DNA of 64,000 bases from an archaeon (GCA_020355185.1 CP070662.1:350357-414356), one strand, 5' to 3'; counted from the stretch's first letter, positions 45,801 through 64,000 are shown. Notes: a model not told the origin generated them from the letters alone. Numbers and translations are program-made.

Positions 45801-48800
45801 TTGAATAAAGAGGATCCGTTATATGCTGTAACCCAGATATCAGTCCAGTTTATTTCATCGATATTGGAGGAGTCGTTATAATCAAAATTCACCCCTCTTA
45901 TTCTCAAGTCCCTGTTTCCAGCAGTTTCCCAAGCACTCAAGACAGAAGAGTTGGTTGTGGAAAGACTAAAATTACCGGTTGAGTTTACACTGAAGTTTCC
46001 TATTTCTATCCATCCGCCACCATCTGTTGTTGCCATTTCCAGTTGTAAGTCGGGGTTGCCATTTCCGTTATTAGAAGAACCCGAGTTGTTGTAAAAAGAA
46101 ACATTAACAGTCACCGTTAATTTTGTCAAATCCTCCATATTTCCTGACAAAACATCATTGTAAGTCGTGTAGGATGTGTTTGCTTCTCTATCCACATCCT
46201 CTAAGGCAGAGTAAGATATGTTTATATCATCAAACCCCCTGCCATCATTTGTGCACGGAAAATTATCATGCTGCATGAATTTTACCGCGAAAGATCCGTT
46301 AACCTCGGAACAAAAGTCCGGGTCAGCTGAAATGTTATGTTCATGGTATCCCCAACTTCCCTCGTCTGTTGTGAGCGCTTCAAGTCTGTACCAATAACTT
46401 CCGTTACAGGTGAAGAACACACCGTCACCGCAGGCACTGTTGCCTGAACAGCCTGACTGGTAGTCTCCGTAATGGTCTCCTAATTGATGGGATTCTTCTC
46501 CTGTTTCTATATGATAAAAGCTAAGAATTATGTTACTTGCTCCTGAGAAATCATAAGTAGTCTTAATTACATTAGTCTCGTACTGGTTACTAGAAGTGAC
46601 ATCCATCCAAAGATAATAAAGTCCTGAATTTGGCGAAGTACAGGCAGATAACTGGACATCTGTTGAGTTATAAGTTCCCGGATTTCCTATCACAGTCCAA
46701 TTGCCCGTAATACCACCGCTTTCAAAACCATCAAAAAATTCTGCAGGAAAAGTTCCCGGTGTTTGAGCCTTTTTCTGTATTTCCCCAGACTCCCGGTCAT
46801 CAGAAGTTAGGTCTTTGCCGAGTGTCAAGTTTACGTATTGGTTCAATCCGTACGAATCTTCAATTGCAAATACCGTTATCAATGCGCTGCCATTTACATA
46901 GAAATATGGGTCGTATTCTTGGATGTTCCCGTAAGTATCGTTAGCCCATATCGAATAATAATAGCTTCCGGTTTGCCAGGGTGTATAGTTATATTCATAG
47001 ATATCTTGCGTATAGTTGGTCATTTCTCGCCATTCCAAGGTGTCGTCGGGTAGCGTTATATTCACAAAAACCCTATCCACGTTTGAGTTATCAGTTACAT
47101 TTGCCGAGATGGTAACGATTCTTCCGAGCCCGCTTGTTTCAGGACTCGCATCAACATCAGCTATAACCGGTTTGGTTGCATCCGCGCTCATTATCATTAA
47201 ATGACTTTCGCTCGAGTTCGTATAATTCTGATTCCCAGCAAAATAACCTGTTACGTTGAACATATCATCAGGACTAAAACTACTTGTGTTTGTAAAGTTT
47301 GTCAGGGGAGTAAATCCTGGGGAGTTGGAAACGTTTTCTGTTATCCCAGTAAAGTTTGTCCAGATTTCAACATCAACACCTGAAATATTCAAGGCTGCTG
47401 TTATGTTGGCGATTTGTCCCACTTCATAAACCACGTCTCCGTCCGTTCCGTTCAAGAGCAAATTAATTTCCGTGGGAGCTTTCTGGACGGTGAAAGACTG
47501 TATCGCCATGGTATCGTTCCAGTCATCTAACGTATCATTTGCCCAATAGTTCCATCCGACCGTTTTTCCTCCAGGAAGTTCTGAACTCGGGATACTGCAG
47601 TAATAAATGTTGCTTTGATTATCGCAAATTGGGTCAGTTGTCGTGTAGTTAGTCCATGTCCCGGTGTAGTTGCTCCTGAAAATAACCGTTCCCAAGCCGA
47701 CAGCATCGTTCCACGTGGAATTGCACTGCACGTCATTCCCGTAAACCGGGTTTCCCGCGGGGTTCTGTTGCACATCTGAATAGTTAGGCGGCGTGGTATC
47801 AACGCTAAAGTATCTGGTATCGGAATTGTTCATGTTACCTTTTGTGTCATTGCAGTAGAAAACCACGTAATTTGAACCGTCTGATATGCCTGAAAGATTG
47901 AGGTAAAAGTGCATGGTTGAATCATTGCTCATCGTCTGGTTTGCACCATCGTTCAGGGAAACGCCACACCAGTCACCGGTTTCGTCCAGAGTAACATTTG
48001 ACCATACCCAGTTCTGCTGATAAACTTGGTTCAGGGGGGACTCTATGGTGATTACCGGAGGATTATCATATGTTACATTCATGTAAGGCCTCAGGGAAGT
48101 GTCAACACCATATTCCTTTGAATACAAACGGTCTTCAGCGGAACTTGCAGTTTCCGGTGTCCTAATAACTATGGAAACGTTATTGTCTCCGTTTTCATAT
48201 TCCGACCTTACCGTATTGGTAACGTTCCAGCAGACCCAACCAACCGCGGTAGTTGCCTGCGTATCTTCTGATGTGAGATTACACTCAGCAGAATTATCGA
48301 ACCCAGGATCACATGGCTGATCGTTCCAAATTATTCCGCCTTCAGTCCATGTGTGGTTGTAAACATGATGCGCAGAAGCCTGGGCCGTGGCACCATTTTG
48401 ATACAAGTAAAGACAAAGCAGTGATTCGCTAATACCAACCTTGTTTGGTATCGAACTAATATTGAACTTGATGTAAGTTCTGTAGGCCCTGTCAGTTCTG
48501 TCCCTTATTCTGACATTGCTGTCATCACCATAATTCGTGGTTGCAGAGTTGCTTCTTACATGAGTGTCATCAAGGTTCTCCGAATCAGGAGCCTGCAGCT
48601 GCACTGTCGGGTCCAGAACGATATCAGAACCGGTGAAGTTGCTTATCCTTATATCTGCCGTATTTTCGTCTATCTGCTTGGTTTCAACCAAGATACCGGA
48701 GGTTGTGCAGTGGTCTTCCTCGTCGCACGTTAGGTTGTACAGGTCGGAGAAATCTATTTCCAATTCTCCGATTAGCAGGGTATCGTTATCCAGAACAGTT

Positions 48801-49666: not shown

Positions 49667-50114
49667 TACATACGAAATATTCCAGGCTCGGTGAATACTC
49701 TCCCCTTTGCGTGCTTACGGCGAGCTGCCACTTTCCTACCTTCACCGCCCTTACCGAAACACCATCGTTCCCATTTTTGTATTCAAGTTCCCCTTCCAGA
49801 TGTTCCAATCCCTTTGGCAGTTCCAGTCTAACGCCTTCTATTTCCGGATTAATTTTCCATTCGATAACAGACTCTTCACCAATGGACATGATAAACCCAT
49901 TTCCCGTTTTTTCAACATGCCTTATATCAAATACAGCGTCTACCTCCGGTTCCATCAAAATAATTCCCAAAGCCGCCCCCATAATTCCAACTGCAATGAT
50001 TATTATCATGATTTGGTATGGTCGGGACGATTTAGGTTGGGTATTAGATCTGGGGGGAACCAGAAACGACTCTACAAACTCCCCGACCACATGTGTATAA
50101 ACCATTTTTACCAT
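49626..50114 (-). CDS. Single-pass membrane protein (162 aa) wedged between the two giant genes
   Basis: TM helix YQIMIIIIAVGIMGAALGIILM followed by a ~110-aa beta-rich ectodomain. Overlaps the 1771-aa stop by 7 nt and the annotated 4285-aa start by 41 nt. Confidence 0.6.
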   Translation of the reverse strand: MVKMVYTHVVGEFVESFLVPPRSNTQPKSSRPYQIMIIIIAVGIMGAALGIILMEPEVDAVFDIRHVEKTGNGFIMSIGEESVIEWKINPEIEGVRLELPKGLEHLEGELEYKNGNDGVSVRAVKVGKWQLAVSTQRGEYSPSLEYFVCIGTTDEDARKYCD

Positions 50115-53100
50115 GTTGCATTCGCCATTATAGTCATCGTGCCCACGTAATTCTGGGCCATTTTACCGTAAGGAACATTCAACCAGTAGTAGGTTGTCTT
50201 GTTCTGCCCCGATGGAACATTCTGGTCCATCAGAGAGTAGGAATATTCCATAGCTGAACCGGTGGAGGGATTGTTCTCAAAACTCCAGGAGATGTTGCCG
50301 GGTCCTATATCGTAGTTGGCCCAGGCTTCCCCCACCATATCAGTTGCCTTTATCCAAAGATAATCCAGGTCATTGCTGTTGGGATCCACGGAGATGTTGT
50401 AGTATTCGTCGGAGTTGTTCAGGGCGGGCCGTTCTGCCTCTCCAGGATCCAGTACCCCAAAACTTACGGTGTCAAAAGTCAGGCTCATGACCAGAACTTT
50501 GCCTATCTCCACTGTGCTGTTTTCGGTGTGGTTGCTTATCTGTGACGTTTCAAAGTAGGCCCCAATTTCGTAAAAATCTCCAAGAGTTCCGGTGGAATTA
50601 ACGCTCCACACCATTGTGGCGTTTTCATCCTGTCCTAAATTTTGCTGTTGCGGGTTGCTATCAAAGGTGTAGAACGGCGTTCCACTGTTTTCAGGTATAT
50701 CCGTATCCGGCTCATTTCCACTTGAGTTGTATCGGACATAGCCCTTAACAAGTCCGCAATTTCCCTTTAAACATATAACAGTAGCATTTATGGTGAAATT
50801 CCTGTACTGAGGAACTATGGTGTTATCCGGAGGAGTATTCAGTGTTACGTTCAGCAGGGCTTTTTGTCCGCCTCCGTATGCGTCAAATTCCGTAACGTTG
50901 AACCAGATGTGTGTAGAATTTTCCTGCATGTTGTAGTCTGAGGTTTCGTTAACCTCCCAAGAAGAACAGTTTGATGTCTTATAGTCCCAATTCGTGCAGT
51001 GAGCAATGTGGGAGACGTTAACTCCGGCCTTCGGTATACAGAGTGTCGCGTAGTCATAATTAACATTGAGTTCTTTCTGTGCATAAACAGGTGTAACGTT
51101 GCTTATTCCCTGAGGAAAAGTTCCCGTGTAGGTTTCCACTATCTGGGAAGTTATGTTCAGATTATCGGATATATTCACATTCTTCAGGTAAGTCTCCTGG
51201 AATCCAGAGGAAAGTTCGGTCCTGAGAGATATGTCATAAAGTTCGTATGCATCCACGTCAGTGGAAATGTTTCCCTGCCCTTCTGTAATAAGACTTCCGG
51301 TAGAATTATATAACCTTATATTGGTATTGCTGCTGGGACCGAGAGTAGTATTGACTGTTATGTTAAGTTCCGCCAAAACTTCATAAGAAAGTTCATCGGA
51401 AACCACATTGTTGTTGCGGGTATCATTTGCATAAATTTTCCATGCAATTACTTTGCCCAAACAGGAATCAGGCACGGTTCTGGTTACGTTGGACCAGGCG
51501 CCTGTCGGTTCTCCGGCCCAAGCCATCGAGCTTTCATTCTGGAAGCCCGCATCGCAGCCGGCTCCTGTCGCATTCCATGATAGCTTGTAAGTGTCAAGCC
51601 CCTTATCATCGCTCCAGTAAACAGAATGTTTGATTGTCGTGCCCTTGTAAATATCAGTAACGTTTATCTGTTCATCCGAAGGCGCGGGCGGATAATCCAA
51701 AATACCCAAAGGTTTTGTGACGTTTGAATCATATGTTGAATCACCCCAGTATACGTTGGCTACTCTGCCACCGGAACTCGTCACGTCCGCATACACCTTC
51801 ACCATAAGCCTCTGATTTTTGCTTATATTGAAGGAAGAGCCTGACCATATGGAAGGATATGAGTCCAAGTCAATCACGTCTGCCGTGTTGCCTGCGTTCT
51901 GGGTAACAGCTGTGCATCCGGTTCCGTCATTTTCACAGACTAGTATATCGTAATCAATATGAAATGTAATTGGTCCGCTTGTCCCTGTTCTTTGTCCCCA
52001 AAAAACAAAATCCCAGTTACCCGAGAGTATTTCCTGTGCAGGTAACTGGTTGGTTACAAACGTTGCAAGCCTATACCTTTGCACGGCGGCGCCCACGGTT
52101 GAGTTGCTGGTGCCAGAGGCAGTGTTGGTGCCGTTTAACCTGTAGAAGTTTCCGCCTGTAAGCACGGTGGTGTCATTTCTGAAGTAAAGGTTTTCAATCG
52201 GTTCACTGACCTCCATTATCCAGCTCTCCTCATCGGTTGTGTAATTTTCATCTCCTGTCCAGTTGGCTTTCACCAGATATTTTCCGTAATTAATGTTGCT
52301 GGTATTCGTTGTATTTGACAGTGGGTCAGGGCCCTCGTCAATTAACTCTAAAGGTCCGCTGAAGTTTGCATAGAGATAAAGATATTTCCCGGATACATTA
52401 AGTGTTGTCTTCAATTCCACAATTTGACCTTTAATATATTTTTTATTCCCTCTAGTCCCGTTAAGCAAAAGGGTCTGTTCCGTAGGACCCTTGGTTATGT
52501 TAAGTAACCGCGTAACAGAACCGCTGGTATAGTTTTCACCCCCGCTTGTATTGTACAGGTAAGAGTAAAGGTTTACCCCCAACCGCTTTAAATCACTTAC
52601 GGGAGAACCTAGAGAGATAGGCGTATCGTTCCTGTAAAGACTGAAAGTCAGGTCCTGAATAGCATCAGACCAAGCTGTCACGTTTGATACAACAGGATAA
52701 GTCAGGTCCTGGTTCTCTTCACTGCCGTTTATGGCCAGATGCAAATGTGAAGAAGGGTCTCTCTTTCCTACAGTCAGATAAAAAGTCTGACCAGTGAAAT
52801 TGCTGGTATAGTTCACATTCCCCGTAATGTTGACCTTGTAGGCGTACCCAGAAGGCTTCGCGCCCAAGACCAGGCTTTGACCGTTCTCCCCGGTTACGTC
52901 AGCACCGTCCCTGTAAAGGTGAACTGTTCCGGAACCAGTGTAAAGTGCGGCCCCGGTGGCGTTCGTCGCCTCCTCATACACAACGCTCATGTTCTGGTTG
53001 AGAAACTCTCCCGAGGAGTTCCTGAAGTAAAGCTCCACAGGATTGCTCTGGTTCTGCTGTATTGTAACGACCGCTGTAACACCGGTTAAGTTAGCAGTCC

Positions 53101-55423
53101 AGTTGGCACCACCCGTAGAATTGAAGCGATAAGTATAGGAACCGGCGGCAAGCAAGGCAGTCTCTTCATACGGAGAAGAGTTTGTAATCAGGCTGTCATT
53201 TCTCCAGAGCTCATAAGTCACATCGGAATCCCCGCCATCGCTTTCAGTGCCGGTAACACCGCTTTCATGAGGGTAGGTCCATGTTCCCCCGCCCGAGATT
53301 TGCAGGTCCAAGATACCCTTGTTCACATTTCTGTACTGGTTCAAAAGAGAATAAGAAGTGTAGTTCTCCGTTTCTGCTATAGCGCACGTGTAGTTGTAAA
53401 CAGCTGCACCCAAAATCACCGATGATTCATTTATCGGGCTGGTTGTACCCTGTGCAACCTGGGAATCGTTCCTGTACAGAGTCAAAGTGGAGGTGGAATC
53501 TCCTGCCAGCCTTTCACAGCCTGTTTGTGTTGATGAAGGATAAACAACAGTCGTCAGGGGACCCACCGATATAGAAGGTGTGGCCTTGTTGACTGAGTAA
53601 ACGGTCTGGGGAAAAGAATCGTTCATCTGCCCGCCGGTGCTGTTGGCATACCACTTGTAGACGTATGTCCCGGCAGCCAGGCTTCCAACATCAAAATAAT
53701 ATTCCCTCTGGTTACCTGATATGGTCCTGTAGGTTGTAACAGTATCATTTTGCATAGAGCCGGTAAAGTTATTCTCCAACCATGTCTGGTCTATTCCGCT
53801 TTCATCGTCCCAGGTAAGGTTGAACTGGTAAGACTGGCTTGGTGAATAGTTTGAACCGGAAACCGGGGAGACAGTCTCCCCCGAATAAGTTGGAGGCTTG
53901 CTGTAAGTTATGTTCATGTAAGGCCTCAGGGATGTGGTTGCATATTCCTTTGAGTATAAATCATCCTGGCTTTCGCTCCCCGTCTCAGGAGTCACTAACA
54001 CAACAGACACGTTCCCGTCCCCGCTTTCATATTCCGACCTTACCGTATTGGTAACGTTCCAGCAGAGCCAGCCCGTTCCCGTTGTGGTCTGAACATCCTC
54101 GGCAGTAAGGTTACATTCAAGCGAGTTATCGAGCCCTGTACCACATGGCTGATCGTTCCAAGTTATTCCAAGTTCCGTCCACGTGTGGTTGTAAACATGA
54201 TGCGCGTAACTCTGGCTTGTGCTACCGTCAATGTAAAGGTAAAGACAGAGGAGCGCCTTGTCAATATTTTTTCCCGAAGGAACCGAGCTTATGTTGAATT
54301 TGATATAGGTTCTGTATATCTTGTTTGTCCTGTCCCTTATGGTTACATAATCGTCAGTCCCGTAATTGTCACCGCTCTTGTCGCTTCTGACATTCGTGTC
54401 ATCTAGGTTCTCCGAGCCAGGAGCCTGCAGCTGCACTGTCGGATCCAGAACAACTTCAGCCCCTGTGAAGTTGCTTATCCTTATATCTGCAGTATTTTCG
54501 TTTATCTGCTTGGTTTCAACCAAGATACCGGAGGTTGTGCAGTTCCCGAGCCCGTCGCAGGTCTTGTTATACAAATCAGAGAAATCTATTTCCAATTCTC
54601 CGATTAGCAGGGTATCGTTATCCAGAACGACTACCCCGGAACCCGAACTAATGGTCAGTCCAAACGATTCCAGGCCGGGGGCATTTGTAAACAAGTGAGA
54701 CCACTTGTAATAACCCGGGCCTTCCTCTATCTCAGTCCTGAAATTCATGACCGCAGGAACTTCCTGTTCAAACCCGCCTATAACCGCATAAGGTTCCAGG
54801 TTTGCGGTTTTGCCGTTCCATTCCAGTTCCAGATTTTTTGAGGAGGCGTTGTAGGCAAAACCGACCAGTTCATTGAAGGGTCTGTAAATTCCTTCGGAAT
54901 CTTCCATGTTCATTTTTCCGGAGTAAAGACTCCTCGTGCAGGTATCCTTGCAACTCTCCGTCCACGTGGGACCGTAATCAAAATTTGAAATTTCCGCCTC
55001 TTGCATAGGACTTGAAATTAATGGTGCGGCGGGTGCGTAGACAGGTTGGGCGTCTTCGGAAACAGATTCAGAAGAATCTTTTACCGCACCCACCGCAAAT
55101 TCTTTTGACCTGACAGTCTGACCGGAACTGATTATAGCTACGTAATCCCCGTTTTCCAGTGGCAGGGAAAGAAAATAAGAGCCCAACGAGTCCGTGGAGC
55201 TTGCTCTTGAAAAAACTTCCCGACCTGTCTGGTCAATTACAGTCAGGGAGAACGGAGTTTTGGGAGGACCAGAAACGAGTATTGATATTGATTCTCCGTA
55301 GGAGTCTTTAGTTTCCAATACCCATTCTTCAGCAGAAAAAACAAAACCAGAAAAAAGGAAAACAGAGATTAATGTGGCTATAAATATACCTTTAAGTCGT
55401 TTATTCCCCCACACGACACCCAA
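50108..55423 (-). CDS. Large secreted surface protein (1771 aa), paralog of the 4285-aa protein at both termini
   Basis: TTG start about 30 nt downstream of a TATA box. Signal anchor IFIATLISVFLFSGFVFSA. Same N-terminal ~520 aa architecture and same C-terminal ~245-aa module ending ...YVGTMTIMANATW (compare ...YAGTVTIMANASW). Confidence 0.85.
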   Translation of the reverse strand: MGVVWGNKRLKGIFIATLISVFLFSGFVFSAEEWVLETKDSYGESISILVSGPPKTPFSLTVIDQTGREVFSRASSTDSLGSYFLSLPLENGDYVAIISSGQTVRSKEFAVGAVKDSSESVSEDAQPVYAPAAPLISSPMQEAEISNFDYGPTWTESCKDTCTRSLYSGKMNMEDSEGIYRPFNELVGFAYNASSKNLELEWNGKTANLEPYAVIGGFEQEVPAVMNFRTEIEEGPGYYKWSHLFTNAPGLESFGLTISSGSGVVVLDNDTLLIGELEIDFSDLYNKTCDGLGNCTTSGILVETKQINENTADIRISNFTGAEVVLDPTVQLQAPGSENLDDTNVRSDKSGDNYGTDDYVTIRDRTNKIYRTYIKFNISSVPSGKNIDKALLCLYLYIDGSTSQSYAHHVYNHTWTELGITWNDQPCGTGLDNSLECNLTAEDVQTTTGTGWLCWNVTNTVRSEYESGDGNVSVVLVTPETGSESQDDLYSKEYATTSLRPYMNITYSKPPTYSGETVSPVSGSNYSPSQSYQFNLTWDDESGIDQTWLENNFTGSMQNDTVTTYRTISGNQREYYFDVGSLAAGTYVYKWYANSTGGQMNDSFPQTVYSVNKATPSISVGPLTTVVYPSSTQTGCERLAGDSTSTLTLYRNDSQVAQGTTSPINESSVILGAAVYNYTCAIAETENYTSYSLLNQYRNVNKGILDLQISGGGTWTYPHESGVTGTESDGGDSDVTYELWRNDSLITNSSPYEETALLAAGSYTYRFNSTGGANWTANLTGVTAVVTIQQNQSNPVELYFRNSSGEFLNQNMSVVYEEATNATGAALYTGSGTVHLYRDGADVTGENGQSLVLGAKPSGYAYKVNITGNVNYTSNFTGQTFYLTVGKRDPSSHLHLAINGSEENQDLTYPVVSNVTAWSDAIQDLTFSLYRNDTPISLGSPVSDLKRLGVNLYSYLYNTSGGENYTSGSVTRLLNITKGPTEQTLLLNGTRGNKKYIKGQIVELKTTLNVSGKYLYLYANFSGPLELIDEGPDPLSNTTNTSNINYGKYLVKANWTGDENYTTDEESWIMEVSEPIENLYFRNDTTVLTGGNFYRLNGTNTASGTSNSTVGAAVQRYRLATFVTNQLPAQEILSGNWDFVFWGQRTGTSGPITFHIDYDILVCENDGTGCTAVTQNAGNTADVIDLDSYPSIWSGSSFNISKNQRLMVKVYADVTSSGGRVANVYWGDSTYDSNVTKPLGILDYPPAPSDEQINVTDIYKGTTIKHSVYWSDDKGLDTYKLSWNATGAGCDAGFQNESSMAWAGEPTGAWSNVTRTVPDSCLGKVIAWKIYANDTRNNNVVSDELSYEVLAELNITVNTTLGPSSNTNIRLYNSTGSLITEGQGNISTDVDAYELYDISLRTELSSGFQETYLKNVNISDNLNITSQIVETYTGTFPQGISNVTPVYAQKELNVNYDYATLCIPKAGVNVSHIAHCTNWDYKTSNCSSWEVNETSDYNMQENSTHIWFNVTEFDAYGGGQKALLNVTLNTPPDNTIVPQYRNFTINATVICLKGNCGLVKGYVRYNSSGNEPDTDIPENSGTPFYTFDSNPQQQNLGQDENATMVWSVNSTGTLGDFYEIGAYFETSQISNHTENSTVEIGKVLVMSLTFDTVSFGVLDPGEAERPALNNSDEYYNISVDPNSNDLDYLWIKATDMVGEAWANYDIGPGNISWSFENNPSTGSAMEYSYSLMDQNVPSGQNKTTYYWLNVPYGKMAQNYVGTMTIMANATW
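53860..54985 (-). repeat. Conserved N-terminal module of the 1771-aa protein (paralogous to 48030-49160)
   Basis: See the 48030-49160 entry. Protein blocks such as YSGKMNMEDSEGIYRPFNELVGFAYNASS.NLELEWNGKTANLEPY are identical. Confidence 0.85.
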
Positions 55424-55480: not shown

Positions 55481-55723
55481 CTACTTGAAGAATTTGCCGA
55501 TGGTTCTCTGTTCAACCCACCAAACCAGCCTTCTCTTGCTCTTGATCATTTCCTCCCTGTTCTTAACCATGTTTTTCAGTTGCAGGTCCTTCAGGTGGAC
55601 ATTGGCGGTGGACCAGGATATATTCAGTTTTTTTGCTATCTCATAAGTTGAAAGAGGTTCGGGACTTTCCCGGAGTAATTTGAGAATTTCTTCGTCCATC
55701 TCAGAAAGTCTGGGGGCGCCCAT
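55481..55723 (-). CDS. Small winged-helix DNA-binding protein (80 aa)
   Basis: DEEILKLLRESPEPLSTYEIAKKLNISWSTANVHLKDLQLKNMV is a typical HTH plus wing. It is the only non-secreted product in the island. Confidence 0.7.
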   Translation of the reverse strand: MGAPRLSEMDEEILKLLRESPEPLSTYEIAKKLNISWSTANVHLKDLQLKNMVKNREEMIKSKRRLVWWVEQRTIGKFFK

Positions 55724-55835: not shown

Positions 55836-56768
55836 TTAAGCGTCGCTTGCTATCACAAAGAGTTCTCCGGAGCCAAGCGCACCTTCCTTTACACCATAAG
55901 ACAGGTGTATTGTTATGTTGGCTACTGTCGAGTTGCCCGGATACAGTGTCCCTGAATAGAAACTCTCCACAAACGTGCCCGAACCAGGCAGGTCCGTGTT
56001 CCAGTGCGACCATCTCACCCTGTCCAAAGTGGTGTTATCTACAGCTATGGTATAATTCAGTCCTCCTCCCTGATTTCCTATTATTATGTCCGCGTAGCAC
56101 CATCCGTCACCCGAGTCCGTTAGACTTCCGTATCTGAATGCTGAGGCCGGATTGGCTGTCAGATCGTTGACACCTGCCCCAGAAAAGTCTACTGTTCCTG
56201 TTGTCGTCTGTGTATGCGCAACGTCGCCTATATAAAAGTCGTTGCTGACGCAAGTGTCTCCTGTCTTGTCGAACATCCAGAACCATTCTTGTGAGGCGTT
56301 TCTGAATCTTCCGTAAGCCCACTTGGTTGAGTTGGGCGGTGAGTTTCCGTCCGGATCCTTAAGATAGATAAGGCTCCTTGTCTCGTTGAACTCAAGCCTG
56401 TCGACAGCATAATAATTTCCTGTTTCCCTTGCTATCCAAAGGAAGTTTGAAGATTCGTAGTTTGATGCTGTGCCCGTACCATAGGGGTTGCTTGTCGGCT
56501 GGGAGACATTGAACCAGAGTGTCGTTATGTTTACCGAACCTATGTTCTCTATCTGCGCCTGTTTTACAGCTCCTGTGGCTCCCGGGTCTATCGCCTCTCC
56601 CCCTTCCCAGGTGAAGGAAGCCGGAGTCAGGTCGATCATCATGCTCGAGCCTACCGTCACGTTAATCTCCGATGATTGTTCGTCTTCTGTTGCCGGTGCA
56701 AACTGTGTGAAGGCCAGAATCAAGGTGCAGATTGCTATAGAAACCAATAACTCTTTACCGTATTTCAT
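55836..56768 (-). CDS. Secreted ~310-aa protein, paralog family member 1
   Basis: Track ORF extends to 56777 (GTG). ATG at 56768 follows GGAGG and gives MKYGKELLVSIAICTLILAFTQFAPA. Shares QIENIGS, WFNV, YGRFRN.S.EWFW, AHTQT, WCYA and PGNSTVA blocks with 57870..58865 and 59000..59956. Confidence 0.7.
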   Translation of the reverse strand: MKYGKELLVSIAICTLILAFTQFAPATEDEQSSEINVTVGSSMMIDLTPASFTWEGGEAIDPGATGAVKQAQIENIGSVNITTLWFNVSQPTSNPYGTGTASNYESSNFLWIARETGNYYAVDRLEFNETRSLIYLKDPDGNSPPNSTKWAYGRFRNASQEWFWMFDKTGDTCVSNDFYIGDVAHTQTTTGTVDFSGAGVNDLTANPASAFRYGSLTDSGDGWCYADIIIGNQGGGLNYTIAVDNTTLDRVRWSHWNTDLPGSGTFVESFYSGTLYPGNSTVANITIHLSYGVKEGALGSGELFVIASDA

Positions 56769-56841
56769 TCTACACACCCTCCTTTTAGTTCTCCCATTCA
56801 GAAAATGGGGATGTTTGAGCTATTGATAATAAGTATGTGGT

Positions 56842-56853
56842 AATATATAAATG
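56842..56853 (-). promoter_or_regulatory. TATA box upstream of paralog 1
   Basis: Minus-strand ACATTTATATATTA about 75-85 nt upstream of the ATG. Confidence 0.4.
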
Positions 56854-56947
56854 TAACGATATATCGAGATAACTTTAAATATAAGCTCTCCCAAAAAATT
56901 TAATTGGTGGGGAACAAAGTGTCATCCTTTCCTCTAATTCTTAATTA

Positions 56948-56962
56948 GAGGGTGTTCCAACC
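56948..56962 (-). promoter_or_regulatory. Conserved GGAACACCCTC element (copy 1 of 3), next to a 9-bp perfect hairpin
   Basis: Plus-strand GAGGGTGTTCCAACC. The adjacent CCTCTAATT-AAG-AATTAGAGG inverted repeat lies just downstream of the 56981..57826 stop. Confidence 0.3.
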
Positions 56963-56980
56963 CCCCACCTTTATTTTTTA

Positions 56981-57826
56981 TCAAGTCAGAATTATTGTGT
57001 AGTTAACAAGCCAGCTGTCATAGTGGTATGAACGCATCCCCTTGTAATAGATTGCACTGACGTTTAACCTGAAATTGTATTTCTCCTGGGGGTACTCCTC
57101 ATAAGGCTTGGGTTTCGGGCTGTAAAACCTGAAACCAACCGATTTTGCCATCACGTATCCCTCTATGCCTTCAATTTGTATGTATTTTTCATCCGGAGGA
57201 TGCTTTTCCGGCTCCGCCATTTTCAATTCCGAGGGTTCGACCTTTACATTCATATCTACAGGATCCCTGTCCATGGGATTGTACCTTTGTACCATTGGTT
57301 CCATCTCCACCCTGAAAGAAGGCCTTTCCAGAATATCCACCTTGACGTAGTAAGTTGTATTTCCGTTTATGTTGTAGAAGTACAGAGCCTCGCCGAACTC
57401 GCTCCCTTTCCTGACCTTTAACTCCTCTCTGTTCTGTTTTATCCCCAGCGGAATAACTATGTCCTGGTTTAATATTTCCTGTACCATGCAGACGGTTTCC
57501 CTTGTCTCCGGGTCAACCCAGAGGGTCATGCTCTTGTTTTCCTTCACATCGGTGTACTGGAATTTCCAGTAGCCCTGTTTCTCGAAGCCGTCTCCGCAGT
57601 CCTGCCTTATTTCTTCAATTTCTTTTTCTATCACGCCTTCTGATATGAAATAACCCTGTACCTTTGCCCTCGGGTAAGCCTGCAGGAATTTCTGGGCCAT
57701 AGGATTCTGGTCTATGACCTCCAGAACGTTTTCCATACCCTCCCTTTCCTCTGTCTGGAAACCCGATAAAAGGAGAAATAATATTATTACAATCAAAACC
57801 AGATTTGAGATCAAAAGCTTGTTCAT
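56981..57826 (-). CDS. N-terminally anchored protein with PepSY-like and beta-sandwich regions (281 aa)
   Basis: Signal anchor LLISNLVLIVIILFLLLSGF. ...YWKFQYTDVKENKSMTLWVDPETRETVCMV resembles PepSY. Confidence 0.55.
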   Translation of the reverse strand: MNKLLISNLVLIVIILFLLLSGFQTEEREGMENVLEVIDQNPMAQKFLQAYPRAKVQGYFISEGVIEKEIEEIRQDCGDGFEKQGYWKFQYTDVKENKSMTLWVDPETRETVCMVQEILNQDIVIPLGIKQNREELKVRKGSEFGEALYFYNINGNTTYYVKVDILERPSFRVEMEPMVQRYNPMDRDPVDMNVKVEPSELKMAEPEKHPPDEKYIQIEGIEGYVMAKSVGFRFYSPKPKPYEEYPQEKYNFRLNVSAIYYKGMRSYHYDSWLVNYTIILT

Positions 57827-57869
57827 AACTATAATTAATCAAAATAAAAATAAAAAAGAGTAAGGGATT

Positions 57870-58865
57870 TTATGCTCCTTCTTCGCTTCTGACGAATACG
57901 GTTAGTATACCCTGTGAAACGACACCTTTTGCCACTCCGTACGGCAGGTAAATCTTAAGGTCGGCCACCGTTGAGTTTCCCGGGAAGGTGTTCATTTCAG
58001 AGAATATCTCGTTGTGGAATGTCTCGTCCCCGTATCCGAAGTCAGAGCCACCCGGAAACTGTATGTTCCAGTGAGACCACCTTACCTGGGTCCCGTTCAT
58101 GTTCACTGCTATGGTGTAGTTCCTTCCGCCTATGTTTATGTTCGCGTAACACCAGTCAGTGCTTCCGGCCTGTGTAAGGGTTCCTGACCTGCAGTCTCCC
58201 GCGGGTGCGTCTGTCAGCGAGTTCGGGCATGTGCTTGAAAAGTCTATCGTACCTGACTGTGCCTGGGTGTGCGGGTCGTCTCCAACATAGAAGTTCGCAC
58301 CATTGCAGTCGTCCGGCGTGGCTTCTCTTGAATCCGTGAACCAGAAGTACTCGTATGAAGTGTTCCTGAACCTTCCGTAGTGATACTTGGTCTCGTTTGG
58401 TGGTATGTTTCCGTCAGGGTCTGTAAGGTAAATCAGCCTCCTTGACTCGTTGAACTCAAGCCTGTCCACCGCGAAATAAACTGGATCAGAACTGTCGCCA
58501 GTGTAGTTTTCCCTTGATATCCAAAGGAAGTTTGCTGCATCATATTCTGTCGGGTCACCTGTTGCGAAAGGCCTGTCCGCCGGTTGAGTGACATTGAACC
58601 AGACCTTTGAGAAGTTGGTTGATCCTATGTTCTCTATCTGAAGCTGCTGTCTCGCTGTATCCTTCCCGGGGTCAACTCCAACCCATGAGAACTCTGCGGG
58701 GTTCATGTCAACCAGTGTCAATGTGGAAACATTAACGTCTATTGTCATGGTATCTGTCACGTTTATTGCTGAAACCTTTGGTGCGAATCCAACGAAGAAG
58801 GATCCTGCCACTAGTATGCTTACGGCTAAAATCCCTAAACTAATTCCTAATACTGAATATTTCAT
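57870..58865 (-). CDS. Secreted ~330-aa protein, paralog family member 2
   Basis: MKYSVLGISLGILAVSILVAGSFFVGFAPKVSA signal peptide, with the same conserved blocks as member 1. Confidence 0.7.
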   Translation of the reverse strand: MKYSVLGISLGILAVSILVAGSFFVGFAPKVSAINVTDTMTIDVNVSTLTLVDMNPAEFSWVGVDPGKDTARQQLQIENIGSTNFSKVWFNVTQPADRPFATGDPTEYDAANFLWISRENYTGDSSDPVYFAVDRLEFNESRRLIYLTDPDGNIPPNETKYHYGRFRNTSYEYFWFTDSREATPDDCNGANFYVGDDPHTQAQSGTIDFSSTCPNSLTDAPAGDCRSGTLTQAGSTDWCYANINIGGRNYTIAVNMNGTQVRWSHWNIQFPGGSDFGYGDETFHNEIFSEMNTFPGNSTVADLKIYLPYGVAKGVVSQGILTVFVRSEEGA

Positions 58866-58878
58866 TATTTCTTCACCT

Positions 58879-58894
58879 GAGGGTGTTCCTAACC
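58879..58894 (-). promoter_or_regulatory. Conserved GGAACACCCTC element (copy 2), in the 5' UTR of paralog 2
   Basis: Plus-strand GAGGGTGTTCCTAACC, 14-29 nt upstream of the ATG. In the mRNA, CACC...GGUG could pair across the Shine-Dalgarno AGGUGA. Confidence 0.3.
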
Positions 58895-58999
58895 TTTTTT
58901 AGGATGCGGGTATATTTAAAGATTTCGCTTATAAAATCAACTTTTTCTTGTTTAAACTCATTTAGTTAAGAGAAAAAAAGGAGGGTTTATGCTGGTTTA

Positions 59000-59956
59000 T
59001 TATGCTGTCGCGCTTACTATAACAGTTATCGTTCCTGTTATTTCCGGATTGCTTGAGTCGTAAACAACACCGTACGGAACCAGAGGCATTACTCTTGCGT
59101 AACCCGATCCACCCGGCATTATCGCGTCTTGCGTCGTGGAGTTAATGAAGAACTCGGCGTTGGAACAAGAGTCTGCTCCGGGCGCATCCATGTTGTATTT
59201 GTAGAACATTGCCTTGCTTGCATCATGGTACATGGCCACGCACACCGGCATAACTCCACCGAAGTTTATGTTTCCGTAACCCCAGTCTCCTGCGTAGGGT
59301 GCGGACGTCACCATTGTAAGGTCAACCTGGTTTGCAGCACTCTGAAGGTCTGCTCCTGTCTCTGTCTGGGTGTGTGCCACAGTTGAATAATAGAACCTGC
59401 CTTGAGTGTAATTACTTGCACCGTTCAAGTCAACCTGCCAGAACCATTCCCTGGAGCCGTTCCTGAACCTGCCGTAAGGCGTGTCAGGCGGGGTGGTGCC
59501 GTCAAAGCCTCTCAGATAAATGATTTCATCGCTTTCATTATATTCCACCCTGTTGGGAAAGTAGTATGTCTGTCCGGGAGTGTTGTTTGATATGACTATA
59601 AAGTTGCCTGCGTCGTACTTTGACACGTTACCTGTCCCGAAAGGCCTCTCGGAAGGATAACTGTTGTTGAACCAGACATAAGTCAGGTTAATGGAACCCA
59701 TGTTCTCTATCTGTATTTTTTTGTAGGTACCATTTGAACCAGGGTCTATCGGGGTAGTCCAGTTCAGGTCATCAGGTGCTATGTTGACTATGCATTTCTC
59801 GCTTATGTTCACCAGCACATTCAGTGTGTCGGATGCGTTTATATCAGCTGCTGTCACATCGCTAATGTTAATCCCCAGCGTAAGGGTAAATATCAAAAGG
59901 GTCAGGATACCCAAAACTAGACCGGGAATTATGTTATTATTCATATTCATTTTCAC
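59000..59956 (-). CDS. Secreted ~315-aa protein, paralog family member 3 (most divergent)
   Basis: GTG at 59956, with ATG alternatives at 59950 and 59944. Signal peptide ...LTLGINISDVTA. Motifs: QIENMGSINLTYVWFNN, PFGTG, YGRFRNGSREWFW, AHTQTETG. Confidence 0.7.
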   Translation of the reverse strand: MKMNMNNNIIPGLVLGILTLLIFTLTLGINISDVTAADINASDTLNVLVNISEKCIVNIAPDDLNWTTPIDPGSNGTYKKIQIENMGSINLTYVWFNNSYPSERPFGTGNVSKYDAGNFIVISNNTPGQTYYFPNRVEYNESDEIIYLRGFDGTTPPDTPYGRFRNGSREWFWQVDLNGASNYTQGRFYYSTVAHTQTETGADLQSAANQVDLTMVTSAPYAGDWGYGNINFGGVMPVCVAMYHDASKAMFYKYNMDAPGADSCSNAEFFINSTTQDAIMPGGSGYARVMPLVPYGVVYDSSNPEITGTITVIVSATA

Positions 59957-59976: not shown

Positions 59977-60020
59977 AGAATTGTTGGTATATTGTTATAT
60001 TTAAAGTTTTCTATATGGGG

Positions 60021-60821
60021 TTATTTCCTTTTTCTTGAGAACGCATAAATATTGGCCATAGAAGACAGAATAAGCAGAATCAGCACGACAATAAAAATGC
60101 TGTAGCCGTTTTCGTCCCAGAAATATTTCTCCTCTCTGAGCTTGAAACTTATCTTCTCTGACGAGTATCTCCCGTCAAGGCTTACTGCCTGCAGGTCCAC
60201 TTTTTCCTCCATCCAGACGGACGGCTCGTAATCCAGGACCAGCTTCGCCCCTTCCCCCGCTTCCAGATTTTCCAGCCTTTTGCTGCTGAATATCCAACCG
60301 GCCGGGTAGTTGGTTGGAATTACTATCAGGTCTTCCACGTCCGTATCCGAATCAAGCATGACTTCAATCTTTTTTCCCGGCAGGTTCCTGGCTTCTATAC
60401 CAATGGTCTCTTCGGAACGTGGAACCGATTCCACAGAGAAGTTGAAGGCTTCGCTTTTTATGGCATCATGACAGTGATGTATTACAAGCACGGTTGAATA
60501 GTTTCCCTTTTCTTCCGGCAACCAGTATGCTTCGAAATGTCTGCTCACTCCGACGGGCATCTCTCTCTCATCCGACCAGACTGTTTCATATTTTCCGCCC
60601 CCTTTCCCAATTCGGTATTCCATCCTGCTGCGGCAACTTACGGATTCACTGTTGTACCACTGGATAACAAATCTCTGCACCGAGTCAACATTTTTTTCCA
60701 GTTCAAAGTATTCGATTTGGCCCCCAATTTTATCCCTGACTCTTACGTTTATTTCAACTGCCAAGACAGATGGTGAGACCAGAAGTATGCAAAGCATTAT
60801 GCAAAAAATCCTTCTCATCAT
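60021..60821 (-). CDS. Secreted beta-sandwich protein with C-terminal TM anchor (266 aa)
   Basis: Signal peptide CIMLCILLVSPSVLA and a C-terminal TM + SRKRK tail. 4-nt overlap with the upstream gene. Confidence 0.6.
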   Translation of the reverse strand: MMRRIFCIMLCILLVSPSVLAVEINVRVRDKIGGQIEYFELEKNVDSVQRFVIQWYNSESVSCRSRMEYRIGKGGGKYETVWSDEREMPVGVSRHFEAYWLPEEKGNYSTVLVIHHCHDAIKSEAFNFSVESVPRSEETIGIEARNLPGKKIEVMLDSDTDVEDLIVIPTNYPAGWIFSSKRLENLEAGEGAKLVLDYEPSVWMEEKVDLQAVSLDGRYSSEKISFKLREEKYFWDENGYSIFIVVLILLILSSMANIYAFSRKRK

Positions 60822-61330
60822 ATTATCCCGATGATTTTTTCAGCAAGAAAATTTTTGGGTATGGTATTTCTTATCATAAGGGTTCCAGTAAAATTCCCGG
60901 TTTCTGTTCCGTTGAAAGTGATTTTTATAGACCTCTTCTCACTTTTCAGATAAATTTTTTCCGGCATTTTCATGTAGGGAGTTATGTCACCTTCGGAGCG
61001 AAGCTCGACCCTAGCCATCCCATCTGACCCCATGTCAATCGTTTTTGTTATGGAGGACTTTCTTGGTATGACACCAAAATTGAGCTCATATTTTTGTCCT
61101 GCCACCCCGACAGGTATGGTATCATTCTCAACTTCAATTACCTCACTCTTCATGGGATAGTACCACAGCTCTTCCCTGAACATGAAGTTTTCCGAGACTT
61201 CCATGGTGCGTTTATCAACTTTTTTTATTTCAAAGTTATGGTACAACAAAAGAAAAGACACAGAGACTATCATTATTAGAGCAAGTACCAATGTTGCAAC
61301 TATTACTATTGCAATGTTTATTTTCTTCAT
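60818..61330 (-). CDS. N-terminally anchored beta-sandwich protein (170 aa)
   Basis: Signal anchor IAIVIVATLVLALIMIVSVSFLLL. The start abuts the upstream stop. Confidence 0.6.
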   Translation of the reverse strand: MKKINIAIVIVATLVLALIMIVSVSFLLLYHNFEIKKVDKRTMEVSENFMFREELWYYPMKSEVIEVENDTIPVGVAGQKYELNFGVIPRKSSITKTIDMGSDGMARVELRSEGDITPYMKMPEKIYLKSEKRSIKITFNGTETGNFTGTLMIRNTIPKNFLAEKIIGII

Positions 61331-62299
61331 CTATCTTCTTCTCCAGTAAATGTATAACAGGATTAGTCCTATTATAAGAATTACTATCCACCAGGGGAAC
61401 TCTTCTGCTCTGACTTCCATCCTTGCAGTCACACCGGCCCTGGGTATAGTTACCATGGTCTCTTTTGTGACTTTTCCGGTAAGGTAGTCCACGGTTGCCT
61501 CAATTTTTATGTTCTTCTGTTCGTTGGTATCCAGGTCTCTCCAGAAAACCTTAAGGATGCCGGTGTTCTTTGGCGGGACCATGACGTATCCTCCGTCATA
61601 AGTACCCACGTAATATCCGGTCTCATTATAAACTTTAAGGGATGAAACTCTGGCGCTCATGGTAACCGTGCCCGAGTTCCTGAAGAGCACATCAACCGCG
61701 GCCCTGTCGCCGTTTCTTGAACCCGCGACCCCTTCTATCACGCCCTCCCTTTTGGCAACGCCGGGTATCTTGAATATGAAAAAAGGTCTGGTTATTCCTA
61801 TTGTCGAGACCCCGGTTCCGGATCCGCCGGAGGAAAGTTTGGGCTTCAAAACAACCTCATATGTGTGGTACCCTGGTTCAGCATCCGGAGGAACGTCCAT
61901 TATTATGGTCACCTTTTCGTTCGCGTTAACTATACTTCCGTCAGGAAACCTTACAGAGAAGCTTTCCCTGTTTGAGACCACTACCTTTTCCCTGAGGAAG
62001 CTTAGCCATTCCGACATATCCTCCTCCGATGCCTCGGCGGGTATAAATGTATAGCGGCCTGTCACGTTGTGGTCGAACATGGACCTCCTGCTCTCTATGA
62101 AATCCAGGCTCGTCACGAGGTCGTTCCTAGAGTTGGTCACAAGGTAAAAATCAACTGCGTACTCCCTGCCCGGTTCAAGCTCTCCTATTTGCATTACCCC
62201 GGGTGCCGCTCCAAGCGAAACCCCTCTCGCCTGCGCCAGGGTTAAGAGAAAAACCAACAAAAGGGACAGCAGAAACGGTGTTTTTTTAGCCAATCTCAA
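61331..62299 (-). CDS. Secreted two-domain beta-sandwich protein with C-terminal TM anchor (322 aa)
   Basis: TTG start 5 nt after GGAGGGG. Signal peptide LLSLLLVFLLTLAQA. Two Ig-like halves (ELEPGREYAVDFYLV..., AVDVLFRNSGTVTM...). TM + WRRR tail. Confidence 0.65.
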   Translation of the reverse strand: MRLAKKTPFLLSLLLVFLLTLAQARGVSLGAAPGVMQIGELEPGREYAVDFYLVTNSRNDLVTSLDFIESRRSMFDHNVTGRYTFIPAEASEEDMSEWLSFLREKVVVSNRESFSVRFPDGSIVNANEKVTIIMDVPPDAEPGYHTYEVVLKPKLSSGGSGTGVSTIGITRPFFIFKIPGVAKREGVIEGVAGSRNGDRAAVDVLFRNSGTVTMSARVSSLKVYNETGYYVGTYDGGYVMVPPKNTGILKVFWRDLDTNEQKNIKIEATVDYLTGKVTKETMVTIPRAGVTARMEVRAEEFPWWIVILIIGLILLYIYWRRR

Positions 62300-62385: not shown

Positions 62386-63150
62386 ATGAGAAAGGTAATT
62401 AGTGTGGTTTCTGGTAAAGGTGGGGTTGGTAAAACCGCCACCACTTCCAACCTTGCTCTTGCTCTGCAGGAGCTGGGTGAAAAGGTAATAGCCATAGACT
62501 GCGACATAGCCGGTTCCAACCTGGCTCTTCATCTGGATTTGCATCCCAATCCTGAGAGGAGTCTTCAGAGCGCTCTGGAGGGTAGAAAAAATGCCATTGA
62601 AGCCATAACTCTTCACAGTACCGGGCTTATGGTCATGCCCTCCTCGCATACCATAAAAGACGAAAACATAGACCGCAGGAAGTTCAAGAAGATACTAAAC
62701 CGCCTGGACGGGATAGTTCTTATAGACGCCCCGCCGGGACTCAACGAGAATCTCCACACTATAATAGACCTTTCTGACGAGGTAATAGTTGTAACCAACC
62801 CCGAGATTCCGGCAGTCGCGGATGCCATAAAAATCGTGGAGATAGTAAAGGAAAAGAAAGGGGGTACGGAAAACTGCTGGTGCGTACTGGCAAAGGTAGA
62901 TGAAATAAAAAAACAGCTCAACGAGGGGGAGATCGAGATGGCCCTTGAGTTGCCCATCATTTCCAGAATACCTTACGACAGAGAGCTGAAAAAAAGCATA
63001 TTCGACAGAGTTCCGGTTGTCAGGCACAGTCCTTACTCCAGTTCTGCCATAGAGTACAGGAAACTTGCTGCATGGCTCACTAACCAGAGTTTCGAACCGC
63101 CAAGATACGCCACCGTAATGAGATTTTTGGGAAAGTTAAGGGGAAGGTAG
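62386..63150 (+). CDS. minD: MinD/ParA-family ATPase, archaeal MinD type
   Basis: Deviant Walker A SGKGGVGKT, Walker B VLIDAPPG, and ...VVTNPEIPAVADA... Confidence 0.9.
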   Translation: MRKVISVVSGKGGVGKTATTSNLALALQELGEKVIAIDCDIAGSNLALHLDLHPNPERSLQSALEGRKNAIEAITLHSTGLMVMPSSHTIKDENIDRRKFKKILNRLDGIVLIDAPPGLNENLHTIIDLSDEVIVVTNPEIPAVADAIKIVEIVKEKKGGTENCWCVLAKVDEIKKQLNEGEIEMALELPIISRIPYDRELKKSIFDRVPVVRHSPYSSSAIEYRKLAAWLTNQSFEPPRYATVMRFLGKLRGR

Positions 63151-63151
63151 G

Positions 63152-64000
63152 ATGAAGTTCAAACTTTTGGCCATGACGTTATTCTTATTTGTATTGATGT
63201 CCGGAAGTGCCCTGGCCATAGACGTGACAGAGCTTACGCTGGAAGAAGAACGTTACATCGGAGACTCCTCCTTTCAGGCATCCTTCAAATGCGAGGGCGA
63301 GGAAAGTCCCGGAGCCAGGATAAACATAACCAAGGGAAGCTGGTGGTACTCCCCCTCGGACATCACCAAGACCAACATGGGAGATAATGTTACCCTGGTG
63401 CAGTACAACATAGACCCGGACGATCTGGACGGGACGGGAAATTATATTTTTAACGCAGTCTGCATGGGAAATGATACAGACCAGTCTTCCAGGAGTTTCG
63501 ACATATATGATTTTGAACTGGAAATACTTTCCCCAACATCCACCCTGGAACTGGTCCAGGGAGACTACCTGACCACGGTTTTCAACTTCAAAAAAATAAT
63601 AGGCTCCAGCAAGTACGACGTGGACGGGGCCAGGTTCAACATGATAGTTTCCAGGGAGGGACAGGAGCTCGTTCTTGCAAACAGCCAGACGCCGAACAAG
63701 GTCAGCGGCAACCTGGAAATGAAGACAATAATATCATACATACCAAGCGAAAAGTTCTACGGCCTTAACAATCTTATAGTGGAGTACAGCACCAGATCGG
63801 AGATCAGAGACTCGGTCAGCGATGTTATAAAGCTTAACAAGGCCTTTGAACTCTCATTTGAGGACCCCACTCCCCTGCAAATGAGCGGTGGAGGAAGTCT
63901 GGACGTACCTGTGTTTGTCAGTTCCCCCAGGCTCGGTACCGAGGATTTGTATGAACTTGAGTTTGACGTGGAAATAGACGGTTCACACGAGACAATAACC
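63152..64000 (+). CDS. Secreted protein, 3' end beyond window
   Basis: ATG 1 nt after the minD stop. Signal peptide MKFKLLAMTLFLFVLMSGSALA. The frame is open to the last base of the window. Not in the track because no stop is reached. Confidence 0.65.
   Translation, partial: MKFKLLAMTLFLFVLMSGSALAIDVTELTLEEERYIGDSSFQASFKCEGEESPGARINITKGSWWYSPSDITKTNMGDNVTLVQYNIDPDDLDGTGNYIFNAVCMGNDTDQSSRSFDIYDFELEILSPTSTLELVQGDYLTTVFNFKKIIGSSKYDVDGARFNMIVSREGQELVLANSQTPNKVSGNLEMKTIISYIPSEKFYGLNNLIVEYSTRSEIRDSVSDVIKLNKAFELSFEDPTPLQMSGGGSLDVPVFVSSPRLGTEDLYELEFDVEIDGSHETIT

Follow-up and report, generated by a model that had tools for sequence, protein, structure and literature searches.

We analyzed a 64,000-nucleotide stretch of archaeal DNA (GCA_020355185.1 CP070662.1:350357-414356); this whole stretch is called the window, and positions are counted from its first letter. 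Three paralogous genes in the window, designated A, B, and C, encode secreted proteins of about 320 amino acids (aa) that are clearly subunits of a surface structure. Their positions are as follows:

55836..56768, minus strand, paralog A, 310 aa from the ATG at 56768, family hidden Markov model (HMM) score 417 bits
57870..58865, minus strand, paralog B, 331 aa, the copy used for the structural model
59000..59956, minus strand, paralog C, 318 aa, the most divergent copy, family HMM score 317 bits

The mechanical list of open reading frames opens paralog A at a GTG at 56777; the ATG at 56768 has a GGAGG just upstream. Paralog C has an alternative ATG start at 59950 with GGTG ahead of it. Paralog B is identical to hypothetical protein JSV92_02620 of an NCBI metagenome-assembled genome (MAG) labelled "archaeon". 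The first-pass annotation of this DNA had described the three reading frames as collinear paralogs, and the comparison bore this out. Identity to A in a three-way alignment was 52% for B and 36% for C, and BLASTP gave E values far beyond chance for A against C (3e-47) and B against C (3e-44). Nearly all of the motif blocks it had quoted were also present (QIEN[IM]GS.N, WFN, R[LV]E[FY]NE, IYL..[PF]DG..PP, YGRFRN.S.E[WY]FW, HTQ, and W[CG]Y), although small deviations were noted: PYGTG and LSYGV in A, PHTQA in B, and YDAGNF in C. The proteins are, as had been proposed, secreted and without a membrane anchor, with one hydrophobic segment each, N-terminal and of the signal type, and none at the C-terminus. 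Each paralog has 10-13 N-x-S/T sequons (10 in A), and the composition is net acidic, with acidic residues outnumbering basic ones about two to one.

A word-indexed search returned 61 close homologs, all unnamed and none with a Pfam domain, and an exhaustive profile search returned 335 clusters (50% identity) at E<=1e-3 and 302 at E<=1e-10. The family was carried by 45 genome loci (GTDB contigs, one genome per species), nearly all of them in MAGs labelled Aenigmatarchaeota, Altiarchaeota, Woesearchaeota, Nanohaloarchaeota, Micrarchaeota, or unclassified archaea. The exceptions by label were two MAGs, assigned to Methanobacteriota (loci L003/L031) and Methanosarcinales (L036). Gene order in L036 equals that in the Nanohaloarchaeota-labelled L038 and the unclassified L042, and mis-binning or mislabelling of DPANN contigs probably accounts for the exceptions. 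The family is real but rare, unannotated, and nearly confined to DPANN MAGs. Each locus has 1-4 family genes, always beside a triad of putative anchor genes (g322, g170, and g266) and/or a gene for a winged helix-turn-helix (wHTH) protein. This copy number fits the earlier suggestion of major and minor subunits. Orthology of A, B, and C was clear only in the closest relatives of the window; other loci look like independent duplications, and C-type copies there tend to stand first among the family genes after the triad. Residues that are invariant or nearly so in the family are Q76, E78, N79, R165, W175, H199, E137, and E140.

Neither A, B, nor C had a significant match in Pfam or NCBIfam. The suggested TasA/CARDB-like signature was not upheld as stated: Pfam scans of family members gave no significant match to Peptidase_M73/TasA, CARDB, or DUF1102, and CARDB (PF07705) had zero matches in 107 members. 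The related family NPCBM_assoc (PF10633) matched 9 of 45 members under the curated level (best E 0.0025), and DUF11 matched 1 of 62. No S-layer family was matched in Pfam or NCBIfam, and no WxL domain was matched by a family member at E<=1 or by a giant protein of the kind described below at E<=0.1. A confident lectin or enzyme match, which the first-pass annotation had named as evidence against its own proposal, was looked for in Pfam, NCBIfam, and the PDB, and no significant one turned up. A Laminin_G_3 (ConA-like) domain was found naturally fused to a complete C-terminal family domain in one protein (P0138, 672 aa).

Two giant genes of the window encode proteins that end in a domain resembling part of the family:

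50108..55423, minus strand, giant of 1771 aa, secreted, CBM96/DNRLRE (CBM96 E 1.4e-23), 81 sequons
50111..50536, minus strand, core-like C-terminal domain of the 1771-aa giant (aa 1630-1771), homologous to the family core by profile comparison
36809..49666, minus strand, giant of 4285 aa, secreted, CBM96 plus Big_1/Big_3-type immunoglobulin (Ig) repeats, 223 sequons
36812..37219, minus strand, core-like C-terminal domain of the 4285-aa giant (aa 4150-4285), 177.7 bits against the giant C-domain HMM

The layout of the giants is CBM96/DNRLRE (E 1e-23 to 2e-25), then Big-type Ig repeats, then the bare core. The C-terminus of the 4285-aa giant (...VYFWLDTPPVYTGSYAGTVTIMANASW) resembles that of the 1771-aa giant, and the C-termini of the giants (...YYWLNVPYGKMAQNYVGTMTIMANATW) resemble the ends of the paralogs (...IYLPYGVAKGVVSQGILTVFV). 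A profile of the giant C-domain was built from the ~142-aa domains of the window and five loci, with family members excluded, and was compared by hhalign with the family core, defined as residues 34-100 and 284-331 of B, the insert 101-283 having been cut out. The match had a probability of 96.3% and a P value of 1.8e-9 over 117 columns. Controls gave P values of 0.25 for the reversed profile, 0.039 for the best of 20 column shuffles, and 0.06 for the best of 30 alternative splices of the same length. By halves, the C-terminal part alone reached 4.1e-8 and the N-terminal part alone 0.0016; with the insert left in, the probability was only 5.7-32%. In reciprocal HMM searches of the window, the giant C-domain and the family were mutual best non-self matches in collinear pieces. 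Convergence of jackhmmer from the giant C-domain onto the family was not taken as proof, because the route passed through one borderline first-round match (19.7 bits), and was replaced by the controlled hhalign comparison. Only 3 proteins were found as homologs of the C-terminal 200 aa of the 1771-aa giant, and an AlphaFold2 (AF2) model of its C-terminal 150 aa (5 giant-type and 32 family sequences) was unusable, with a predicted local distance difference test (pLDDT) score of 39.5 and a predicted template modelling (pTM) score of 0.25.

On the strength of these profiles, the C-terminal ~140 aa of the giants are homologous to the beta-sandwich core of the family. The match implies that the ~320-aa proteins consist of a small beta-sandwich core and a conserved insert: ~65 N-terminal and ~45 C-terminal core residues, split by a beta-rich segment of ~185 residues that carries R.E.NE, YGRFRN, EYFW, HTQ, and WCY.

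The AF2 model of paralog B, built from a 62-sequence alignment, was confident and all-beta, with about 14 strands (pLDDT 86.4, pTM 0.80). Foldseek found no PDB match to it at E<1e-3. The top match was the donor-strand-exchanged TasA fibre (8aur_A, E 4.6e-3, probability 0.87). The 50 best matches also included FimA/FimI, the Pyrodictium cannula subunit CanA (rank 15), and CfaB, and did not include AbpA, AbpX, or thread. Other matches were generic beta-sandwiches (spike N-terminal domain, adenovirus knob) and, weakly, the sandwich domains of heparinase II and GH92. Nothing in the viral library BFVD was matched at E<1e-3; a 154-aa protein of Bacillus phage SP-15 (A0A127AW38), possibly a small protein of TasA- or pilin-like type, was recorded there at probability 0.95, TM-score 0.53 (normalised to target length), and E 0.041.

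Members of the TasA superfamily, which include B. subtilis TasA and the archaeal AbpA, AbpX, CanA, Saci_0406 thread, and TafE, form donor-strand-complemented biomatrix fibres. We compared the family profile (190 sequences) with a TasA profile of 117 PF12389 proteins, the TasA sequence having been checked against 8aur. The hhalign probability was 85.5% (P 5.7e-6), where more than 90% would mark a relationship, and the match spanned 41 columns only, in which the family reads "..P..(F/L).W.GV.PG......IQIENIGS.NI..IW" against "SVNLSNLKPGDKLTKDFQFENNGSLAIKEVL" in TasA. At a permissive setting, the collinear alignment also took in the post-cleavage strand and, ahead of it, the signal peptide. The family profile reached only 11.9% against the single TasA sequence, and global mode gave meaningless output. 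The motif resemblance is real and statistically non-random because of the profile match. The likeness to TasA claimed earlier thus survives in part: the "...PG......QIENIGS" hairpin is like "LKPGD...FQFENNGS" of TasA, and the best fold match is 8aur, but the profile match is short and the fold match weak. The family is not filed as a TasA family member; it may work like TasA.

A conserved amphipathic strand directly follows the predicted signal peptide cleavage site. In nearly all of the 190 sequences, B positions 42, 44, and 46 are V or I (2.8-3.3 bits), with variable polar residues in between. The pattern T-x-(I/V)-D-(I/V)-x-P comes next. In the monomer model, B residues 24-51 are coil by DSSP, and the strand is unpaired there. 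This strand looks like a putative donor strand.

Candidate transcription signals were read from the sequence around B and C:

58911..58920, minus strand, TTTAAATATA, archaeal TATA-box-like element, 46-55 nucleotides (nt) upstream of the B start
59996..60005, minus strand, TTTAAATATA, identical copy about 50 nt upstream of the paralog C start
58973..58979, minus strand, oligo-T run after the stop of paralog C

Both copies of TTTAAATATA are putative promoters. The boxes and the oligo-T run suggest that each paralog is transcribed on its own. Upstream of paralog A there is a less clear element, TTTATATATT, at 56842..56851.

The genes on either side of the paralogs encode the putative anchors and a regulator:

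60021..60821, minus strand, g266: signal peptide, CARDB-like beta-sandwich ectodomain, C-terminal transmembrane (TM) segment, basic tail; homologs in 22 loci
60818..61330, minus strand, g170: N-terminal TM anchor and an Ig domain of the ASH/PapD-like superfamily; 4-nt overlap with g266
61331..62299, minus strand, g322: two tandem beta-sandwich domains between a signal peptide and a C-terminal TM segment, RRR tail; homologs in 21 loci
55481..55723, minus strand, wHTH transcription factor of 80 aa, directly downstream of A; HTH_24 E 2.7e-8

The triad genes abut or overlap. Given this arrangement and the separate TATA-like boxes of B and C, the subunits could exceed the anchors in amount. CARDB matched 3 of 18 g266 members at E>=0.018, and PDB entries 3idu and 2kl6 were found for g266 at E ~0.1; hhalign (97.5%) shows its N-terminal domain and domain 2 of g322 to be homologs. 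For g170, Cep192_D4 was found in 16 of 18 members (best 1.6e-7), together with HYDIN-like Ig, ASH, and PapD-like matches and the PDB entry of HYDIN (9ijj, E 5.3e-15). The g322 protein matched WxLIP_PGBD/HBD in 2 of 19 members at E>=0.02 and Loki-CTERM weakly, and searches of PDB sequences and profiles gave nothing useful; its architecture is WxLIP-like. A homolog of the wHTH gene follows the family genes in 28 loci.

A second set of surface protein genes adjoins the 4285-aa giant, a convergent ATPase module faces it, and two more genes lie beyond the triad:

36015..36776, minus strand, p253: one beta-sandwich domain between a signal peptide and a C-terminal TM segment; adjoins the giant gene
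33806..36013, minus strand, p735: large ectodomain with CARDB-like repeats between a signal peptide and two C-terminal TM segments; homologs in 14 loci
29919..30902 and 30903..31886, plus strand, two MoxR AAA+ ATPases
31887..32837, plus strand, DUF58/VWA protein
32868..33848, plus strand, protein with seven TM segments (7-TM)
62386..63150, plus strand, MinD-type archaeal ATPase, divergent from the triad; TIGR01969 E 2.7e-50
63152..64000, plus strand, secreted protein, start only (it runs off the window), with a weak CarboxypepD_reg match

The p253 protein is a paralog of domain 1 of g322 (hhalign 94%, 155 columns), and one domain of p735 is related to g266 (82.9%), which indicates a second set of anchors, dedicated to the giants. 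The trio of a giant, a ~264-aa protein, and a ~740-aa protein is kept in L025, L028, L038, L042, and L043. The MoxR-MoxR-DUF58-7TM module converges on p735-p253-giant in the window, and in about 30 other loci it stands directly after the family genes and the wHTH gene, which suggests that the MoxR/VWA machinery is functionally linked to the surface cluster. The MinD gene, paired with the gene of the secreted protein that follows it, adjoins the triad in 17 loci. Homologs of the truncated secreted protein (L001, L006, L011, L044, and L046) are about 840 aa long, with an ectodomain, one C-terminal TM segment, and a Lys/Arg-rich cytoplasmic tail; together with MinD, this protein may position the apparatus. 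Gene order was compared over 49 loci. The conserved order is the ~840-aa secreted TM protein, MinD, the g266-g170-g322 triad, 1-4 family genes, and the wHTH gene, followed by MoxR-MoxR-DUF58-VWA or, in the clade of the window, by the giants. The conserved synteny of giants, anchors, and MoxR module indicates that about 34 kb of the window form one surface-protein supra-cluster.

Joining of the proteins through intermolecular beta-sandwich contacts of some form is likely. Tentatively, and with some reserve, we favor the reading that the three genes encode subunits of a TasA-like, strand-complemented surface fibre that is rooted in the triad and carries the giant adhesins. A, B, and C would be Sec-secreted, N-glycosylated, anchorless subunits of a DPANN cell-surface assembly and would join head-to-tail by beta-strand complementation, as in TasA-superfamily fibres. 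Each subunit would donate the amphipathic strand that is conserved after the cleavage site (V/I at B 42, 44, and 46). The co-transcribed Ig-like anchors g322, g170, and g266 would hold the fibre on the membrane, and the giant carbohydrate-binding proteins would be carried through the shared core module. The outcome could be an appendage with adhesive function, plausibly one for attaching to host cells or biofilm. This reading is favored because the best fold match is to a subunit in fibre form, the N-terminus runs collinear with that of TasA, the amphipathic strand is conserved, and copy number varies. It is favored further because the subunits have transcription signals of their own as opposed to the operon of the anchors, and because the make-up of the locus is like that of published TasA-superfamily loci, which combine subunits of major and minor type with tip proteins, an anchor in the membrane, and a transcription factor (PMC9245690; bioRxiv 10.64898/2026.01.04.697558). 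Likenesses to the TasA superfamily are the Sec signal peptide, the amphipathic N-terminal strand, the "PG...x-F-x-N-x-GS" hairpin collinear with TasA, a jelly-roll-like all-beta model nearest the TasA fibre, an acidic composition, and several paralogs per locus. At the level of the locus, both also include a wHTH regulator, beta-sandwich proteins with membrane anchors, and large proteins that are putative tips or adhesins. A broader proposal, that the cluster encodes a hitherto undescribed, DPANN-wide surface appendage serving episymbiotic DPANN archaea as their host-attachment organelle, in which a donor-strand fibre rooted in the triad and tipped or decorated with giant adhesins would be positioned by MinD and matured by MoxR/VWA, seems unlikely.

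Several results weigh against a TasA-like fibre. Superposition of 8aur_A on the B model was weak (TM-scores 0.24/0.32, root-mean-square deviation 17 A), and the C-terminal half of the family with its hairpin did not align with the TasA C-terminus. The family profiles found nothing among PDB sequences even at E<=10. Peptidase_M73 (PF12389) scored 11.7 bits with B (E 0.23) against a gathering score of 22.5, and its matches in 6 of 107 members (4/62 plus 2/45; best E 0.056) were all sub-threshold. The PG...N.GS hairpin also occurs in Ig/CARDB-type domains, including those of the neighboring anchors, so the hairpin does not discriminate. The N-terminal strand is kept internally in the giants and in the P0138 fusion and so may be an edge strand used in cis (strand A). 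That the giants have g322- and g266-like anchors of their own fits one-to-one docking better than a fibre tip. No Peptidase_S24/S26 signal peptidase was found among the cluster proteins, and no NCBIfam match to the SipW-type signal peptide model was found at E<=0.1. A dedicated signal peptidase (SipW or SPase I) is frequent in TasA-type loci, although not universal. The family differs further from TasA in the ~185-aa insert that splits its core, and the locus differs in its ties to MinD and MoxR/DUF58/VWA. Unlike in TasA systems, the hosts are DPANN archaea; no DPANN TasA-like system was found in a literature search, nor any earlier description joining DPANN with TasA, donor strand, MoxR, or this cluster.

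The same parts could instead build a docked surface complex without a polymer, like the WxL/WxLIP (Csc) clusters of Gram-positive bacteria, which we regard as possible though rather doubtful. The shared core would then bind one-to-one by strand insertion, to g322/g266/g170 in the small proteins and to p253/p735 in the giants, and the conserved insert would give the small proteins a functional domain, e.g. one for binding. The layout matches that of WxL clusters, with a small protein that is the domain only, a very large protein with the same module at its C-terminus, preceded by host-binding domains, and a TM protein with two Ig-like domains; this is an analogy of architecture and not homology. 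In WxL clusters, AF2 predicts a strand donated by the anchor (PMC10599100), and strand complementation is the predicted way of joining here as well. The g322 protein has exactly the architecture of two Ig-like domains plus a C-terminal TM segment seen in the WxLIP partner (DUF916 + DUF3324 + TM), with weak WxLIP_PGBD/HBD matches. The operon of the giants has its own g322-like and g266-like proteins (94% and 83%), and the survival of the N-terminal strand in fusions is also as docking would have it. However, the family and the giants have no detectable sequence similarity to the WxL domain (at E<=1 and E<=0.1, respectively), the WxLIP matches are not significant, archaea do not have the peptidoglycan that WxL binds, and the archaeal cluster adds g170 (ASH domain), g266, MinD, and MoxR modules. 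Separate promoters, 1-4 copies for a single triad, and a fibre-form best fold match suit a polymer somewhat better. Chaperone-usher pili (FimA/FimH/FimC) offer another comparison, in that their adhesin has two parts, a binding region and then a C-terminal pilin-like module common with the small subunits, in that g170 has an Ig domain of the ASH/PapD-like superfamily, and in that FimA and CfaB are among the weak fold matches. They differ in that no PapD_N/PapD_C or usher match was found anywhere in the cluster, there is no outer membrane, and g170 matches ciliary ASH/HYDIN-type domains and not pilus chaperones.

That the paralogs form the outer lattice of an S-layer-like two-dimensional coat, with the TM-anchored Ig-like proteins as stalks, is very unlikely. 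SlaB is such a stalk for SlaA in the archaeal S-layer, and secreted, acidic, sequon-rich, all-beta proteins with separate membrane-anchored partners, a cluster conserved over several DPANN phyla, and a promoter-like element per paralog would suit a coat. Only a minority of DPANN genomes carry the family, though (45 species-level loci; 335 clusters), copy number ranges from 1 to 4, the proteins are smaller than is usual in archaeal S-layers and match no S-layer family in Pfam or NCBIfam, and a core common with giant adhesins is not an S-layer feature. It is equally improbable that the family comprises secreted lectins or enzymes, in which R.E.NE, YGRFRN, EYFW, and HTQ of the insert would form a jelly-roll glycan-binding or catalytic site and the paralogs would differ in specificity. 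The many near-invariant polar and aromatic residues, the weak fold matches to sandwich domains of glycan-active enzymes (heparinase II and GH92), and the CBM96 of the giants are consistent with such a role, but the family searches of Pfam, NCBIfam, and the PDB gave no significant enzyme or lectin match, no PL7, GH16, or ConA-type catalytic jelly-roll was among the 50 best Foldseek matches, and the genomic context is made up of structural surface proteins throughout. A PL7-type lyase suggested by R.E.NE, HTQ, and YGRF was dropped, as the fold and HMM matches included neither a lyase nor a ConA-like jelly-roll.

DPANN archaea are tiny symbionts that live attached to other cells, and little has been established about how they attach at the molecular level. 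Giant proteins, and surface proteins that lack annotation, abound in their genomes. The cluster likely encodes a surface assembly in which small subunits and giant adhesins are joined through beta-strands. It is of moderate to high interest because the biology of DPANN attachment gains a concrete, testable parts list: an unnamed family, a module common to small subunits and CBM96 giants, and conserved anchors and ATPases. Should the subunits polymerise, another major group of archaea would join those with TasA-type donor-strand fibres, here with an unusual split-core architecture. Should they do no more than dock, the cluster would amount to an archaeal counterpart of the Gram-positive WxL surface complexes. 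A link to the altiarchaeal hamus subunit was also considered; the published hamus gene encodes a 97-kDa soluble protein and has a different neighborhood (PMC4460559).

Two smaller genes lie among those described:

56981..57826, minus strand, 281-aa protein with an N-terminal TM anchor, between B and A, lineage-specific
49626..50114, minus strand, 162-aa protein with one TM segment, between the two giants

Homologs of the 281-aa protein at the same position were found only in 4 loci, the close relatives of the window, and its sole Pfam match was a weak one to PepSY (E 0.062). A homolog of the 162-aa protein follows the giant in L006.

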